From Escherichia coli 042 (lineage in GTDB: Bacteria; Pseudomonadota; Gammaproteobacteria; Enterobacterales; Enterobacteriaceae), in assembly GCF_000027125.1 (NCBI RefSeq), contig NC_017626.1: a stretch of 64,000 nucleotides of DNA, one strand, 5' to 3'. The translations under genes and the position numbers were made by a program. The notes under the pieces are model-generated. The model did not search any database. It saw nothing but the letters and a program-made list of their open reading frames with translations, and had not been told where the DNA came from. Positions 4,769 through 36,012 of the stretch are shown one piece after another. Numbering within the stretch: position 1 is the stretch's first letter; each line of letters opens with the position of its first letter.

Positions 4769-6082
4769 ATGAAAAATATAAAATTCAGCCTGGCCTGGCA
4801 GATTCTGTTTGCTATGGTGCTGGGCATTCTCCTGGGAAGCTACCTGCACTACCATAGCGACAGCCGCGACTGGCTGGTCGTCAATTTGCTCTCTCCGGCG
4901 GGTGATATCTTCATCCATCTGATCAAAATGATTGTTGTGCCGATTGTGATCTCCACGCTGGTGGTGGGTATCGCGGGTGTTGGTGATGCCAAACAGCTCG
5001 GGCGTATTGGCGCGAAAACCATTATTTACTTCGAGGTGATCACCACCGTCGCCATCATTTTGGGGATCACTCTGGCGAACGTCTTCCAGCCCGGTGCCGG
5101 GGTGGATATGTCGCAGCTGGCGACCGTCGATATCTCGAAATATCAGAGCACTACGGAAGCGGTACAAAGCAGTTCCCACGGCATTATGGGCACGATTTTG
5201 TCGCTGGTGCCGACGAACATTGTGGCGTCGATGGCGAAAGGCGAAATGCTGCCGATCATCTTCTTCTCGGTGCTGTTTGGTCTGGGGCTTTCCTCCCTGC
5301 CCGCGACGCATCGTGAACCGCTGGTGACCGTGTTCCGCTCCATCTCTGAAACCATGTTTAAAGTGACTCATATGGTGATGCGTTATGCGCCGGTGGGTGT
5401 GTTTGCGCTGATTGCGGTGACGGTGGCTAACTTTGGTTTCTCGTCTCTGTGGCCACTGGCGAAACTGGTGCTGCTGGTGCATTTCGCCATTCTGTTCTTC
5501 GCGCTGGTAGTGCTGGGAATTGTGGCGCGCCTGTGCGGGTTAAGCGTCTGGATCCTGATTCGTATTCTGAAAGATGAGCTGATTCTGGCGTACTCCACTG
5601 CCAGCTCTGAAAGCGTGCTGCCGCGAATTATTGAGAAGATGGAAGCCTACGGTGCACCGGCGTCGATCACCAGTTTCGTGGTGCCGACCGGTTACTCTTT
5701 TAACCTTGATGGTTCGACGCTGTATCAAAGTATTGCCGCTATTTTCATCGCTCAGCTGTATGGCATTGACCTGTCCATCTGGCAGGAAATCATTCTGGTA
5801 CTGACGCTGATGGTGACCTCGAAAGGGATTGCTGGAGTGCCGGGCGTGTCGTTTGTGGTGTTGCTGGCAACGCTGGGCAGCGTAGGGATCCCGCTGGAAG
5901 GTCTGGCGTTTATTGCCGGTGTTGACCGTATCCTCGACATGGCGCGTACTGCGCTGAACGTGGTGGGTAATGCGCTGGCGGTGCTGGTGATTGCCAAGTG
6001 GGAACACAAATTTGACCGTAAGAAAGCGCTGGCTTATGAGCGCGAAGTGCTGGGCAAATTTGATAAAACTGCGGATCAATAA
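4769..6082 (+). CDS. gltP: Glutamate/aspartate:proton symporter
   Basis: 437 aa polytopic membrane protein recognised as GltP (DAACS family); AGGA-containing RBS upstream. Confidence 0.95.
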   Translation: MKNIKFSLAWQILFAMVLGILLGSYLHYHSDSRDWLVVNLLSPAGDIFIHLIKMIVVPIVISTLVVGIAGVGDAKQLGRIGAKTIIYFEVITTVAIILGITLANVFQPGAGVDMSQLATVDISKYQSTTEAVQSSSHGIMGTILSLVPTNIVASMAKGEMLPIIFFSVLFGLGLSSLPATHREPLVTVFRSISETMFKVTHMVMRYAPVGVFALIAVTVANFGFSSLWPLAKLVLLVHFAILFFALVVLGIVARLCGLSVWILIRILKDELILAYSTASSESVLPRIIEKMEAYGAPASITSFVVPTGYSFNLDGSTLYQSIAAIFIAQLYGIDLSIWQEIILVLTLMVTSKGIAGVPGVSFVVLLATLGSVGIPLEGLAFIAGVDRILDMARTALNVVGNALAVLVIAKWEHKFDRKKALAYEREVLGKFDKTADQ

Positions 6083-6117
6083 TTGAAGATTGCCGGGGAT
6101 ATCCACCCGGCAATGTG

Positions 6118-6388
6118 TGGATGCCTGATGCGACGCTTGCCGCGTCTTATCAGGCCTACGCTAGACTGCGCAATAGCTTGATTTAGGGTGATTTTGTAGG
6201 TCGGATAAGGCGTTTACGCCGCATCCGACATCAATATCTGATGCGACGCTTACCGCGTCTTATCAGGCCTACGCCAGACTGCGCAATAGCCTGATTTAGC
6301 GTGATTTTGTAGGTCGGATAAGGCGTTTACGCCGCATCCGACATCAATGCCTGATGCGACGCTTGTCGCGTCTTATCAGGCCTACCTT
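6118..6388. repeat. REP/BIME cluster: about 2.3 tandem copies of a ~116-120 bp unit, each containing inverted REP palindromes
   Basis: Directly visible repetition of gatgcgacgcttgccgcgtcttatcaggcctac... and gtaggtcggataaggcgtttacgccgcatccgaca; REP consensus-like sequence between convergent gltP and yjcO. Confidence 0.85.
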
Positions 6389-7076
6389 AACCGTTGGTTA
6401 ATTTCTCAAACTCTTCACAACCGGTATCAAACCCTTCCATACAGCTCAGGTTCAGCCAGTGCAGCGCCTTTTGCTTGTTCTTCTCGATAAAACCTTCTTC
6501 ACCGTTTAAGAACATCATTCCCGCCCAGTACTCGGAATAACCGGTTCGGGAAATCGCAGAGCTGCGTTTGAAATACCAGGTTGCCTTGTCATCGTCGGCC
6601 TTAATGCCCACGCCGTTGGCGTAAATCAAACCAAGCAGCATTTGGGCATCGACGGCAGAGTCGTTCTCCAGATCTTCCGAAGCGTTTTCTAACAGCGAAA
6701 TCGCCTTTGGATAATCCGGTTTACCCGCTTGCGTATTTACCAGAATATGCGCCAGCGTTACTTCACCTTCTTTACTCCCCGCTTGCGCTGCTTTCTCTGC
6801 AAGAACTTTTGCTTGTGGATAGTCCAGACTGACCGGATTGGTGATTTTGATCTGCGCCAACAGCGCGCAGGCATCAGCATCACCGCTGTCGGCGGCTTTC
6901 TGTGCCCAATATTCGGCTTTGCTCAAATCGCCGGAGCTAAACCAGCTGTCGGCAAGAAAATATTGTGCGCGTCGGTCCCCGGCCTCTGCTGCCTTTAAAT
7001 ACTGGCTGCCAGGCTCGGAGTCGTTCGCGTGGGCAAAGAATGTCAAAAACAACATCAATGCGATAATTTTTTTCAT
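6387..7076 (-). CDS. yjcO: Sel1-repeat (TPR-like) periplasmic protein
   Basis: 229 aa with signal peptide (MKKIIALMLFLTFFAHA) and repeated Sel1-like motifs; position between gltP and fdhF. Confidence 0.85.
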   Translation of the reverse strand: MKKIIALMLFLTFFAHANDSEPGSQYLKAAEAGDRRAQYFLADSWFSSGDLSKAEYWAQKAADSGDADACALLAQIKITNPVSLDYPQAKVLAEKAAQAGSKEGEVTLAHILVNTQAGKPDYPKAISLLENASEDLENDSAVDAQMLLGLIYANGVGIKADDDKATWYFKRSSAISRTGYSEYWAGMMFLNGEEGFIEKNKQKALHWLNLSCMEGFDTGCEEFEKLTNG

Positions 7077-7169: not shown

Positions 7170-9317
7170 TTACGCCAGTGCCGCTTCGCGCAGGCGAGTT
7201 TTCAACTTGTTGTACTCGTCAATCACGTACTGCTCGGCGGCGCGCTGATCGGCGATCGACTCGACGCGCACGGCGCAGTATTTGTATTCCGGCGTTTTCG
7301 TAATCGGGCTTAAGTTTTCGGTAACCAGCTCGTTACAGGCACCAATCCACCACTGGTAGGTCATATAAATCGCCCCTTTGTTCGGACGATCGCTGACCTG
7401 CGCACGGGTGATAATTTTGCCTTTACGCGAGTGCACCCAAACCAATGCCTCATCTTCAATACCCAGACGTTTGGCGTCTTCGGTATTGATTTGTGCGTAG
7501 CCAGGTTCATCAGCCAGCGCCGCCAGTGCCGCACAGTTACCGGTCATCGAACGGCAAGAGTAGTGACCAACTTCACGCACCGTTGACAGTACCATCGGAT
7601 ACTCGTCGGTGAGTTTGTCGATTGGCGCTACCCAGTCGCAGGTGAAGAACTGCGCCAGACCGTTCGGGGTATCAAACTTCTCTTTAAACAGATAAGAAGT
7701 CCCCTGATCGGCATCTGAAGTATCGCGGCAAGGCCACTGAATGAAGCCCAGTTCGCCCATTTTCTCGTAAGTCGCACCGTAGAAATCCGGGCACAGATGA
7801 CGCAACTCATCCCAGATCTCCTGGGTGTTGTTGTAGTGCATCGGATAACCCATACGAGTGGCAATTTCACTGATGATTTGCCAGTCCGTTTTCAGATCCC
7901 ATTTCGGTTCAACTGCTTTGAAGAAACGCTGGAAGCCACGGTCAGCCGCAGTAAACACGCCTTCATGCTCGCCCCACGACGTTGACGGTAAAATAACATC
8001 CGCCGCCGACGCGGTTTTGGTCATAAAGATGTCCTGAACGATAACCAGTTCCAGATCTTCAAAGGCTTTACGTACTGCCGACAGCTCCGCGTCAGTTTGC
8101 AGCGGATCTTCGCCCATAATGTACGCGGCACGCACTTCGCCATGCGCTGCGCGGTGCGGCAGCTCGCTGATGCGATAGCCGGTATGCGCTGGCAGGCTTT
8201 CCACGCCCCAGGCTTTGGCGAATTTCTCGCGGTTAGCCGGATCTTTCACGTACTGGTATCCCGGATACGTATCCGGCAGCGCGCCCATATCGCAGGCACC
8301 CTGCACGTTGTTCTGACCACGAACCGGGTTTACACCCGCATGCGGCTTACCGAGGTTACCGGTCAGCATCGCGAGGCTGGTCAGAGAACGCACGGTTTCC
8401 ACGCCCTGGTAGAACTGGGTTACACCCATGCCCCACAGGATGGCGGCGCTTTTCGCCTGGGCATACATCCGTGCCGCCTGACGAATCTCACTGGCGCTGA
8501 CGCCGGTGATATCTTCAACCGACTCCGGCGTGTAGCCTTCAACGATTTTACGATACTCTTCAAAGCCTTCTGTACGGGAAGCGACGAATGCTTTGTCGTA
8601 CAGATTTTCTTCAATAATGACATGGCCCATCGCATTCAACAGCGCGATGTTCGAGCCGTTTTTCAGTGCAATGTGGATGTCCGCAATGCGCGCGGTTTCA
8701 ATTTTGCGCGGATCGCAGACGATAATTTTCGCCCCGTTACGTTTAGCGTTAATTACGTGATTCGCCACGATTGGGTGGGAATCCGCCGGGTTGTACCCGA
8801 AAACGAACACTAAATCGGTATTATCAATTTCGTTAATAGCATTGCTCATTGCGCCATTACCGACCGATTGGTGCAGACCTGCAACCGATGGGCCGTGTCA
8901 GACACGAGCGCAGCAGTCAACGTTATTGGTACCAATAACGGCGCGCGCAAATTTTTGCATTACATAGTTGGTTTCGTTACCCGTACCACGCGAGGAGCCG
9001 GTCGTCTGGATGGCATCCGGACCGTACTTCTCTTTGATGGCGCTCAGGCGCTCGGCAACGTAATTCAGTGCCTCATCCCAGGAAACAGGTTCGAGTTTGC
9101 CGCCACGCTGGCGACGGATCATGGGGGTTTTCAGGCGCGGGGTCAGGATCTGGGTATCGTTAATGAAATCCCAGCCATAATAACCCTTCAGACACAGGGT
9201 ACCCTGGTTGGTTTTCCCCTGCGCTGCCTCCGCCCGGACGATTTTGCCGTTATCGACGACCAGGTTGATTTTGCAACCTGATGCGCAATAGGGGCAAACC
9301 GTGACGACTTTTTTCAT
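7170..9317 (-). CDS. fdhF: Formate dehydrogenase H (selenocysteine/molybdopterin enzyme); in-frame UGA at 8898-8900 decoded as Sec
   Basis: ORFs 8898..9317 and 7170..8849 are in the same frame, separated only by TGA (complement of tca at 8898-8900); together 715 codons; N-terminal Cys cluster (CPYCASGC). Confidence 0.95.
8850..8897 (-). other. SECIS mRNA stem-loop directing selenocysteine insertion at the fdhF UGA
   Basis: Immediately 3' of the UGA on the coding strand: CACGGCCCAUCGGUUGCAGGUCUGCACCAAUCGGUCGGUAAUGGCG, which I recognise as the fdhF SECIS hairpin. Confidence 0.85.
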
Positions 9318-28534: not shown

Positions 28535-28978
28535 TTATTGCGTTGGTTGTTGTTTGACGACATTAATCATCCACGGTACGCCAAATTTATCGGTGACTTT
28601 GCCGAAGCCATGCGCCCAGAAAGTTTCCTGCCAGGCCATTTCGATTTTTCCGTTGGCGGCAAGATTGTCAAACCAGCGTTTCCCTTCTTCGACCTGTTGC
28701 GAATCGAGCACTAACGTAAAGCCGGAGTAGCTGGCTTTTCCTGACGGTATAGCATCGCTCATCATGATATCGCTTCCGGCAATGCGCACATTGGCGTGGG
28801 CGATGGCGGTATCGGGAAATTGCATTCCGGAAGGGCAGTTCTCGGCGCTGTCCTGCGCTGATTTTGGCATTTCGCCGAAGCTGATTTTATAGATCAGTTC
28901 AGCGCCCAACGTACGTTGATAATAAGCAATTGCGTCGGCACAGTTACCGGCAAAAGAGAGGTAGGGACTTAACGGCAT
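28535..28978 (-). CDS. yjdN: Glyoxalase/bleomycin-resistance fold protein (PhnB)
   Basis: 147 aa; recognised as YjdN/PhnB. Confidence 0.85.
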   Translation of the reverse strand: MPLSPYLSFAGNCADAIAYYQRTLGAELIYKISFGEMPKSAQDSAENCPSGMQFPDTAIAHANVRIAGSDIMMSDAIPSGKASYSGFTLVLDSQQVEEGKRWFDNLAANGKIEMAWQETFWAHGFGKVTDKFGVPWMINVVKQQPTQ

Positions 28979-29137
28979 GATGGTGACCTCAGTTAAGAGA
29001 AGCCAGTTAAGTGTAGTTCGAAATTTATACAGATGAGAGGGAAGCCTGATAAGACGCGGTCAGCGTCGCATCAGGCAGTCGGCATCGTTGCCGGATGCGG
29101 CGCGAGCGCCTTATCCGGCTTACCGATCACAATACAA

Positions 29138-29473
29138 TCAGTTCTTTTTCACAAACTCAGATTTCAGTTTCATCGGACCAAAACCGTCGATTTTGCAATC
29201 GATGTTATGGTCGCCTTCAACCAGGCGGATGTTTTTCACTTTGGTGCCAATTTTCAGCATCGAAGAGCTACCTTTCACCTTCAGATCTTTAATGATGGTA
29301 ACGCTGTCGCCGTCAGCCAGCAGATTGCCGTTAGCATCTTTAACGATCAGCTCGTCGCTTTCCTGTGCAGGTTCTGCGTCGTTCCATTCGTAGGCACATT
29401 CCGGGCAGATGTACATGCCGTTATCTTCGTAGGTGTATTCGGAGTTGCATTTTGGGCAGTGTGGTAATGACAT
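29138..29473 (-). CDS. yjdM: Zinc-ribbon protein YjdM (PhnA)
   Basis: Start chosen at [26 protein letters not shown] (111 aa) with two CxxC pairs; the 160-aa track ORF extends upstream without support. Confidence 0.85.
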
Positions 29474-29874
29474 GTGGATTTCCTCAAAAGTCAGCAGGGC
29501 AAAAGCGCCAAAAAACGGCAGATTGCCGAAAAAGGCCGCAATTATACACAAAATCCCTGAGTTTGTCGGGGGTACTGCTGATTTTAGACGACGATCGTTT
29601 TCATTTGAAAGGAAACGCAAAAAGAAAATAATCTTTTTGCCTCCATTTATTATTTAAGATAAGGTTAATGCTCTACTTGTTCTTTTTTTAATTCAAATGA
29701 TATTTTTATCTTTCTGACGTTTTAAACGTATCGGAAGACGTTATTTATTCTAATAAAAAACAACACGCTAAATATAAAATTATTTCTTGCAGTAATTATA
29801 AAAGCCGAAAACAGAACTCAAAAACAATCTGGCTAAATAAAAGTAACAAAATTTGCTTTAAGGAAGAATTTTCT

Positions 29875-34744: not shown

Positions 34745-34794
34745 GCTGAAACGGATGGCCTGATGTGACGCTGTCTTATCAGGCCAATTGAAGT

Positions 34795-34811
34795 CTTAAG
34801 GTTCACTTAAT
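34795..34811 (+). promoter_or_regulatory. PmrA (BasR) box upstream of pmrR
   Basis: CTTAAGGTTCACTTAAT is a hexamer direct repeat with 5-bp spacer, matching the PmrA box pattern CTTAAT-N5-CTTAAT, about 45 bp upstream of the pmrR ATG. Confidence 0.7.
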
Positions 34812-34855
34812 CTCTGACGCGCATACTCTCCTCCAGGTTAACGGAGGAGAGTGCA

Positions 34856-34945
34856 ATGAAAAACCGTGTTTATGAAAGTTTAACTACCGTGTTCAGCGTG
34901 CTGGTGGTCAGCAGCTTTCTTTATATCTGGTTTGCCACGTACTGA
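34856..34945 (+). CDS. pmrR: PmrR, 29-aa membrane peptide (LpxT inhibitor)
   Basis: ATG at 34856 preceded by GGAGGA; encodes MKNRVYESLTTVFSVLVVSSFLYIWFATY; below the ORF-track size cutoff; its 3' end overlaps the convergent basS 3' end. Confidence 0.8.
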   Translation: MKNRVYESLTTVFSVLVVSSFLYIWFATY

Positions 34946-36012
34946 TCTTTCTTCAGCCGTACCCAGGCCCGCGTGCCGGAAGTCTCTTGCCGGTTTTGCA
35001 GGAAAAACTGCCCGTGATGCAACTGTGTAATGCGGCTGACAATACTTAACCCCAGACCAATCCCGCCATAACGGCTGTCCATACGTACAAACGCTTTACT
35101 CAACTCCCCGCATTTACTCTCATCAATACCCGGTCCTTCATCTTCAACGGCCATGACCGCTCCGCCATCTTCTTGCAGCTTAATCATAATGTTGCTGCCT
35201 TGCGGGCTGTAACGATGGGCGTTTTCTACCAGGTTTCGCAATAACATCCGCAGCAGGGTTGCATCACCTTGAACGGTGATGTCGGCGGCGCTCTCTGGCA
35301 ATAGCAGGGTTTGCTGTCGCTGGTCGAGCATGGTACTGAGTTCGTCATACGAGGGGAGAATGACATCTTCCAGCAGTTTTACATGTTGATAATTACCGGA
35401 AGAAAATGACTGTCCGGCACGCGCCAGTTGCAGCAGCTGGGAGACACTCTCCATCATCTGATCAAGCCGTGCCACTAACGGTGCTACATCAATGTGATGC
35501 GTTTTCGCCAGCAGTTCCAGATGCAAACGCACCCCCGCCAGTGGCGTTCGCAGTTCGTGCGCGACGTCAGCGGTAAACAACCTTTCGTTATCCAGCGTGC
35601 TGGTCAGGCGACTGACCAGATCGTTCAACGCCGAAACCACCGCTTCGATTTCGAGGGTGGCGCTGTGAATGGCAATAGGCGTTAAGTTGTCGGCGGTGCG
35701 CGCTTCCAGCTCTTTTTGCAGCTCCGCCAGCGGCCGGGTGATGCGGCGTACCGCCTGATAGCAGATAAATAGCGTCAGGCTGACCATAAAGACGCCGGGG
35801 ACGATCAGGCTGGCGACCGCCTCGCGGATCTCACGCATGATGTGGCGATCGTTGTTGCGATTGTCGCGTAGCGCCTGCTCAAACAGCTGAATCTGCTCGG
35901 TACTTTCATGCCATAGCCAGAAGACGCTGATCAGCTCAAACACCAACAAAATGGCCCCAATGGTCAATATCAGCCGTTGGCGCAGCGATATTGGTCGGCG
36001 CAGAAAACGCAT
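34921..36012 (-). CDS. basS: BasS (PmrB) sensor histidine kinase
   Basis: HisKA and HATPase motifs (HELRTPL, GIGLGLSIV); start uncertain between 36012 and 36021. Confidence 0.9.
   Translation of the reverse strand: MRFLRRPISLRQRLILTIGAILLVFELISVFWLWHESTEQIQLFEQALRDNRNNDRHIMREIREAVASLIVPGVFMVSLTLFICYQAVRRITRPLAELQKELEARTADNLTPIAIHSATLEIEAVVSALNDLVSRLTSTLDNERLFTADVAHELRTPLAGVRLHLELLAKTHHIDVAPLVARLDQMMESVSQLLQLARAGQSFSSGNYQHVKLLEDVILPSYDELSTMLDQRQQTLLLPESAADITVQGDATLLRMLLRNLVENAHRYSPQGSNIMIKLQEDGGAVMAVEDEGPGIDESKCGELSKAFVRMDSRYGGIGLGLSIVSRITQLHHGQFFLQNRQETSGTRAWVRLKKDQYVANQI

Follow-up and report, generated by a model that had tools for sequence, protein, structure and literature searches.

The classification of BIMEs goes back to Bachellier, Gilson and Hofnung and was summarised by Ton-Hoang et al. 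(2012, PMC3333891). A BIME-1 element combines a z1 REP and a y REP with a long L linker, often with an IHF site, and occurs in single copy. A BIME-2 element is built of z2 and y REPs, a short S linker and s/l/r flanks, and occurs in multiple tandem copies. An atypical BIME mixes motifs of BIME-1 and BIME-2 (y, z1 or z2, L or S, s/l/r) and is likewise multi-copy. The BIME between gltP and yjcO of K-12 was used in the same study as the oligonucleotide substrate B319, which was cut at four linker sites in vitro by TnpA(REP), the REP-associated Y1 transposase (PMC3333891). The reported cleavage motifs are TGCC/TGAT beside z-type inverted REPs and GGCC/TAC within CTAC, with the slash at the point of cutting (PMC3333891).

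The array described here lies in a stretch of 64,000 nt from E. coli 042, referred to below as the window. It shares with the K-12 BIME its locus, the 113-nt unit, the alternation of z2 and y REPs, the L-like and short linkers, and tandem copies that vary between strains. It differs in having two units and a closing z2 where K-12 has four to five units, and in a few point differences, including a C to T change at 6177 that gives a perfect IHF core here. The finding is real but ordinary, and little of it is new, since both REP/BIME arrays and the gltP-yjcO locus have been described in the literature.

The annotation of the K-12 record NC_000913.3 has no REP feature at the gltP-yjcO locus. In that record (4294000-4297500), the last y REP reads GGCGTTTACCGCATCC where other K-12 assemblies have GGCGTTTACGCCGCATCC; two bases are missing and, as a result, the hairpin is broken. 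The omission matches a call, '+CG at 4,296,380, gltP/yjcO', that recurs in laboratory-evolution papers and was made in 34 of 35 isolates in one such study. In one evolved strain, the array was the boundary of large duplications. The array is a known resequencing trouble spot and an occasional duplication join point.

Organization of the gltP-yjcO array

Tandem Repeats Finder identified one array at 6124-6385 (period 113, 2.3 copies, 93% matches, score 475) and no other tandem repeat with a score of 100 or more in the 64 kb window. An independent repeat search of the region returned two 113-nt copies with 95% identity and three 39-nt copies at an exact spacing of 113 nt. The periodicity reported in the initial annotation is genuine by both methods; however, the unit of about 116-120 nt that it proposed is corrected to 113 nt by Tandem Repeats Finder. 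The same annotation had placed the array at 6118-6388 and had it fill the intergenic gap. An array is indeed present, but its true limits are 6123 and 6385, and it occupies most of the gap (263 of the 304 bases between gltP and yjcO) rather than all of it, as the 40 nt beside gltP hold a non-REP hairpin. The convergent flanks, gltP on the plus strand and yjcO on the minus strand, agree with the RefSeq record from which the gene calls were taken (E. coli Ecol_316, 100% identical to the window). In that annotation the next gene after yjcO is fdhF, on the minus strand. The array is extragenic, lying wholly between the gltP and yjcO stop codons. The features are as follows.

4769-6082, plus strand: gltP, glutamate/aspartate:proton symporter; the array is in its 3' untranslated region
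6089-6114, no strand: non-REP hairpin of 9 bp with arms AUUGCCGGG and CCCGGCAAU, from folding, 7 nt past the gltP stop
6123-6159, plus strand: z2 REP 1, CTAC at the 3' end ('iREP' sense), TGCC/TGAT and GGCC/TAC motifs, -21.3 kcal/mol, z -5.2
6160-6195, no strand: long linker 1, 36 nt, homologous to the L motif of BIME-1, matching the yhaC-rnpB BIME-1 linker in 25 of 36 columns
6171-6183, minus strand: perfect predicted IHF core AATCAAGCTATTG, inside long linker 1
6196-6230, plus strand: y REP 1, GTAG at the 5' end, -18.8 kcal/mol, z -4.9
6231-6235, no strand: short linker 'tcaat', an 's'-type junction, away from the GTAG ends
6236-6272, plus strand: z2 REP 2, 5' end changed from GCC to ATC, -15.4 kcal/mol
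6273-6308, no strand: long linker 2, predicted IHF core with one mismatch, AATCAGGCTATTG
6309-6343, plus strand: y REP 2, identical to y REP 1
6344-6348, no strand: short linker 'tcaat', read from the sequence
6349-6385, plus strand: z2 REP 3, -21.8 kcal/mol on the minus strand, stem starting 5 nt past the yjcO UAA
6199-6269, plus strand: pair of y REP 1 and z2 REP 2, Rfam RF02564 naRNA4, 68.1 bits
6312-6382, plus strand: pair of y REP 2 and z2 REP 3, Rfam RF02564 naRNA4, 78.4 bits
6387-7076, minus strand: yjcO, Sel1-repeat protein; the array is in its 3' untranslated region

Read along the plus strand, each unit consists of a z2 REP, a 36-nt linker, an inverted y REP and a 5-nt linker; the unit occurs twice and is followed by a third z2 REP, so that five REPs alternate in orientation. 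In pattern searches that allowed at most three mismatches, the 37-nt z2 REP was found three times, always on the plus strand, and the 35-nt y REP twice in the opposite sense. The proposed REP/BIME identity, with two inverted REPs per unit, is supported. Chance, artefact or another class of repeat is refuted as the origin of the array: shuffled sequence is expected to yield 0.00 matches for either REP, none of the spacers is unique, the units are built of canonical REPs, and the same array with variable units recurs at the locus in Escherichia sp. E1V33 and throughout the E. coli genomes sampled. A 47-aa ORF on the plus strand (6347-6490) that overlaps the last REP might be cited for such an origin.

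The conserved tetranucleotide of REPs, GTAG on the 5' side of the stem foot or CTAC on the complementary strand, is in place: GTAGG begins the y REPs at 6196 and 6309, and CCTAC ends the z2 REPs at 6159, 6272 and 6385. The cleavage motif GGCC/TAC is present at all three z2 REPs, while TGCC/TGAT is present at 6122 and 6348 and lost at the second z2. With its GTAG REP hairpins and the CC/T motifs by the iREP and linker, the array has the sequence of a candidate TnpA(REP)/RAYT substrate.

The repeat search listed no inverted repeats in the region although REPs are imperfect palindromes of 30-40 nt, and the hairpins were obtained by folding. All five REPs are predicted to form hairpins on either strand (-15.4 to -21.8 kcal/mol, z -3.6 to -6.6), and none of 200 shuffles folded as stably. 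The whole intergenic RNA had a folding z of about -9 on both strands. The weakest of the five hairpins is z2 REP 2, in which the change from GCC to ATC at the 5' end accounts for both a weaker stem and the loss of the TGCC/TGAT motif.

Scanning 5900-6600 for intrinsic terminators and promoters turned up nothing that resembles a promoter and, within the array, nothing that resembles a terminator; thus, the array is not a canonical Rho-independent terminator. The non-REP hairpin at 6089-6114 was kept in every allele examined and served as the left anchor for decoding alleles. It has no U tract after it on the gltP (plus) strand and a moderately U-rich tail, CUUCAAUUAUU, after it on the yjcO (minus) strand. 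From this tail, the hairpin might terminate yjcO read-through that has passed the array.

BIME class and the IHF-like linker

The array does not fall into either of the two main BIME classes. Like a BIME-1, it has a long linker with an IHF site, in this case a predicted core. The partner of y is, however, a 37-nt z2 and not z1, and the copies are tandem rather than single, with 2.3 in the window and a maximum of about 8 elsewhere among the strains. The combination of z2 and y in multiple tandem copies is that of BIME-2; however, the paired REPs are not separated by a short S linker, since the CTAC-GTAG junction is a 36-nt L-like linker. A tandem arrangement of z2, y, an L-like linker and a short linker is what the definition of the atypical class describes. 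With z2 in place of z1, an L-like linker in place of S, and tandem copies, the gltP-yjcO array fits the 'atypical' class, in which BIME-1 and BIME-2 features are combined, as judged by its sequence.

The relationship of the long linker to BIME-1 was apparent from a search across E. coli genomes. Where a genome lacks the unit at gltP-yjcO, the best match to the linker junction (81%) is at yhaC-rnpB, a textbook BIME-1 in which a 35-nt linker separates a 29-nt z1 from a y REP. The window linker and the yhaC-rnpB L linker are identical at 25-26 of 36 positions, and their IHF-type cores coincide in the alignment. In general, the array resembles BIME-1 (RIB/RIP; yhaC-rnpB) in its inverted REPs around a linker of about 35 nt, in the position of the IHF-type core and in an identity of about 70%. 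It differs in its longer z2 (37 nt, compared to the 29-nt z1 at yhaC-rnpB) and in its tandem rather than single-copy form.

The IHF consensus WATCAANNNNTTR is matched perfectly in unit 1 at 6171-6183 on the minus strand and with one mismatch in unit 2 at 6284-6296. A single C to T change at 6177 (GCCTGAT to GCTTGAT) perfects the core of unit 1 relative to that of unit 2. A perfect core is also present in two units of one decoded three-unit allele, and all K-12 units have the core with one mismatch. The 13-nt consensus occurs 4 times in the window against 2.6 expected by chance, a count that is not significant, and thus the case for an IHF site rests on homology to the L linker.

The BIME-2 element used for comparison was REP325 (yjdM-yjdN), the source of naRNA4. 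Both loci consist of tandem y and z2 pairs in a 3' untranslated region, both match the same Rfam model, and both are polymorphic in copy number. In the published definition of BIME-2, the paired REPs are joined by a short S linker, and the spacer of REP325 is particular to it; in contrast, the array has a 36-nt L-like linker at the CTAC-GTAG junction and 5 nt at the other junction. Within the window, the REP325 locus was located at 29043-29120 on the minus strand, between ORFs at 28535-28978 and 29138-29620, also on the minus strand, which appear to be yjdN and yjdM judging from gene order. It has a single Y + Z2 pair here (Rfam naRNA4, 87.5 bits) compared to the six units described for K-12, making it a second BIME in the window that is polymorphic in copy number.

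The match to naRNA4 raises the question of whether the array encodes small RNAs of this type, in which processed Y + Z2 transcripts of about 77 nt would bind HU, bridge DNA cruciforms and condense the nucleoid. Both y + z2 pairs of the array score above the RF02564 gathering score of 59.5 bits (78.4 and 68.1 bits), naRNA4 from REP325 was reported to condense DNA together with HU, and about 80% of REPs were reported to be transcribed (Qian et al. 2015). RF02564 was, however, built on the Y + Z2 pair of REP325 and in effect models any such pair; therefore, a match shows the identity of a REP pair and not its function. Further, a 2026 preprint with Sankar Adhya among its authors found that deletion or over-expression of REP325 leaves the nucleoid volume unchanged, detected no long-range REP-REP contacts, and described REP325 as acting locally as a terminator and stabiliser. 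At gltP-yjcO itself, a Y + Z2 pair is absent from 45% of the sampled genomes. Taken together, a role as naRNA4-type genes is highly improbable, and a local role of the hairpins in the 3' region, as set out below, is preferred.

Copy number across E. coli genomes

Copy number was examined with a query made of the flanks only, the array having been removed, so that the span of each match gives the insert length. A ranking of about 5,420 genomes was sampled systematically twice, and each sample gave 59 informative genomes (118 in total). As the initial annotation had anticipated, copy number varies between strains: the insert ranges from 36 to 899 nt among the 118 sampled complete E. coli genomes. 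The alleles were distributed as follows.

Single REP, 36-39 nt: 53 of 118 (45%)
Two units (the allele of the window), 263 nt: 4 of 118 (3.4%)
Three units, about 376 nt: 13 of 118
Four units, about 489 nt: 19 of 118
Five units, 602 nt: 1 of 118
O157:H7 type, 136 nt: 8 of 118
B2-type alleles, 106, 447, 672, 787 or 899 nt: 20 of 118

A one-unit allele was met in the initial search, apart from this tally. From the lengths and the decoded representatives, most lineages have inserts of 37 + 113n nt. The IHF-like core is lost from the O157 allele through a 14-nt deletion, and in the B2-type alleles both terminal z2 REPs are truncated and 1, 4, 6 or 7 y REPs are present. Overall, the number of REPs at the locus runs from 1 to about 17 across the sampled genomes. 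At least one intact REP was present in every allele decoded in sequence, no insert shorter than 36 nt was found among the 118 sampled genomes, and all alleles read had their last REP only a few bases from the yjcO stop codon. As a strong copy-number polymorphism, the gltP-yjcO array is usable as a marker, and its alleles are a possible natural series for relating REP number to the expression of convergent genes.

K-12 assemblies differ from one another at the locus. CP009685, W3110 and others have four units, while NC_000913.3 and some MG1655 assemblies have five. The four-unit allele is ordered A-B-A-B and the five-unit allele A-B-A-X-B, where unit A has a GCC z2 loop and a y REP with TTTATG, and unit B has an AAC z2 loop and a y REP with TTTACG. 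Unit X is a hybrid with the z2 (left part) of B and the y (right part) of A. A left part of B joined to a right part of A is exactly what one in-register exchange or slippage of misaligned units gives, in either direction. On this sequence evidence, copy number most likely shifts when the 113-nt units undergo in-register unequal exchange or slip during replication. TnpA(REP) may contribute to the change, and the difference between four and five units among K-12 assemblies could partly be assembly error.

The range of alleles also bears on the view that the array is selfish or neutral non-autonomous DNA, amplified by TnpA(REP) or slippage, that has no effect on gltP or yjcO and binds no protein. 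Such a view would accommodate a locus with 1 to about 17 REPs and no obvious constraint, the truncated terminal REPs of the B2-type alleles, the cleavage of the K-12 version by TnpA(REP), and the proposal by Nunvar et al. that BIMEs are non-autonomous transposable elements. It is more difficult to reconcile with the retention of at least one intact hairpin in every decoded allele and of at least 36 nt in every sampled insert, or with the persistence of the last REP a few bases from the yjcO stop in all alleles read. Regardless of how they arose, stable hairpins in a 3' region that is transcribed will affect RNA ends, and local effects have been measured for REP325. A wholly inert array is therefore unlikely; nevertheless, with regard to the extra units, this view overlaps with the preferred account of a hairpin barrier in which those units are near-neutral.

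The array is not confined to E. coli in the strict sense, since 5.0 copies are present at this locus in Escherichia sp. E1V33. An exact-pattern scan of one genome per species returned matches only in Escherichia sp. E1V33 and in one contaminant contig. The pattern is too strict and misses B2-type linkers with five T's, which is probably why the E. coli representative itself was missed; for this reason, the scan says little about taxonomic spread. The contig in question, NZ_JAAIYA010000177.1, is from the Pyxidicoccus caerfyrddinensis assembly and is 240 nt in length with a coverage of 0.53, made up entirely of gltP-yjcO BIME units. Since it carries the hybrid unit specific to the K-12 five-unit allele, it is almost certainly contamination of the myxobacterial assembly by laboratory E. 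coli K-12.

In strain Ec-U18 (NZ_CM192145.1, approximately 2555347-2556265), the match ends within gltP, near window position 5841, and a molybdopterin oxidoreductase is annotated adjacent to it. This suggests that the end of gltP was lost together with the array and yjcO through a deletion or rearrangement.

Proposed function

The gltP-yjcO array, an atypical BIME in the shared 3' region of both genes, most likely acts as a two-way 3'-end hairpin barrier, with extra units that are probably near-neutral. By analogy with characterized REPs, the transcripts of gltP and yjcO would both run into the array, where the hairpins would block 3'-to-5' exonucleases and shield the mRNA ends from either side. 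The hairpins would also partly stop read-through, limiting convergent transcription into the neighbouring gene. Both genes are transcribed in MG1655 according to the expression tables of the 2026 preprint. In the same preprint, REP325, a y + z2 array of the yjdMN operon, is a partly Rho-dependent terminator and a stabiliser of upstream mRNA, convergent pairs with an intervening REP have higher expression, and bidirectional terminators contain about 40% of the REPs that lie between convergent genes. Two observations count against this account: 45% of the sampled genomes have a single REP, so that the extra units are dispensable, and genes with terminal REPs show no genome-wide difference in half-life, with effects that are strongly context-dependent (2026 preprint).

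The REPs begin 5 nt from the yjcO stop codon (UAA) and 40 nt from that of gltP. Translation is reported to be reduced by REPs that lie under 16 nt from a stop codon (Liang et al. 2015). By extension, the REP 5 nt past the yjcO stop could also hold down the translation of YjcO.

The roles named in the initial annotation (gyrase and IHF binding, stabilisation of upstream mRNA) are properties of the family known from the literature, and for this array they would hold by analogy. As DNA, the array may be bound by IHF at its L-like linkers and may have gyrase sites in its y REPs. Enriched gyrase cleavage in vivo, mainly within y REPs, is documented for a subset of BIME-2, a finding that concerns BIME-2 and not this chimeric type. 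The supplementary tables of the gyrase Topo-Seq study, searched by name, contain no gltP or yjcO entry.

A more ambitious interpretation of the polymorphism is that unit number is a heritable, fast-changing dial that sets mutual read-through of gltP and yjcO, transcript lifetime and the amount of YjcO. If so, the polymorphism of 1 to 17 REPs would translate into real expression differences between E. coli lineages, and the lineage-specific C to T change that perfects the unit 1 IHF core would add an architectural switch. Such a dial seems improbable.

Other elements in the window

A SECIS element (Rfam SECIS_2, 87.1 bits) was identified at 8851-8905 on the minus strand, inside fdhF (7170-9317, minus strand), where it marks the selenocysteine UGA of formate dehydrogenase H. 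As a result of this UGA, the ORF list shows only a 559-aa ORF (7170-8849), while the RefSeq gene is 2148 nt. The enterobacterial small RNA family STnc630 (RF02052, 181 bits) is matched over its full length at 34787-34952 on the plus strand, with a degenerate REP-like half-site at 34775-34788 just upstream of it.
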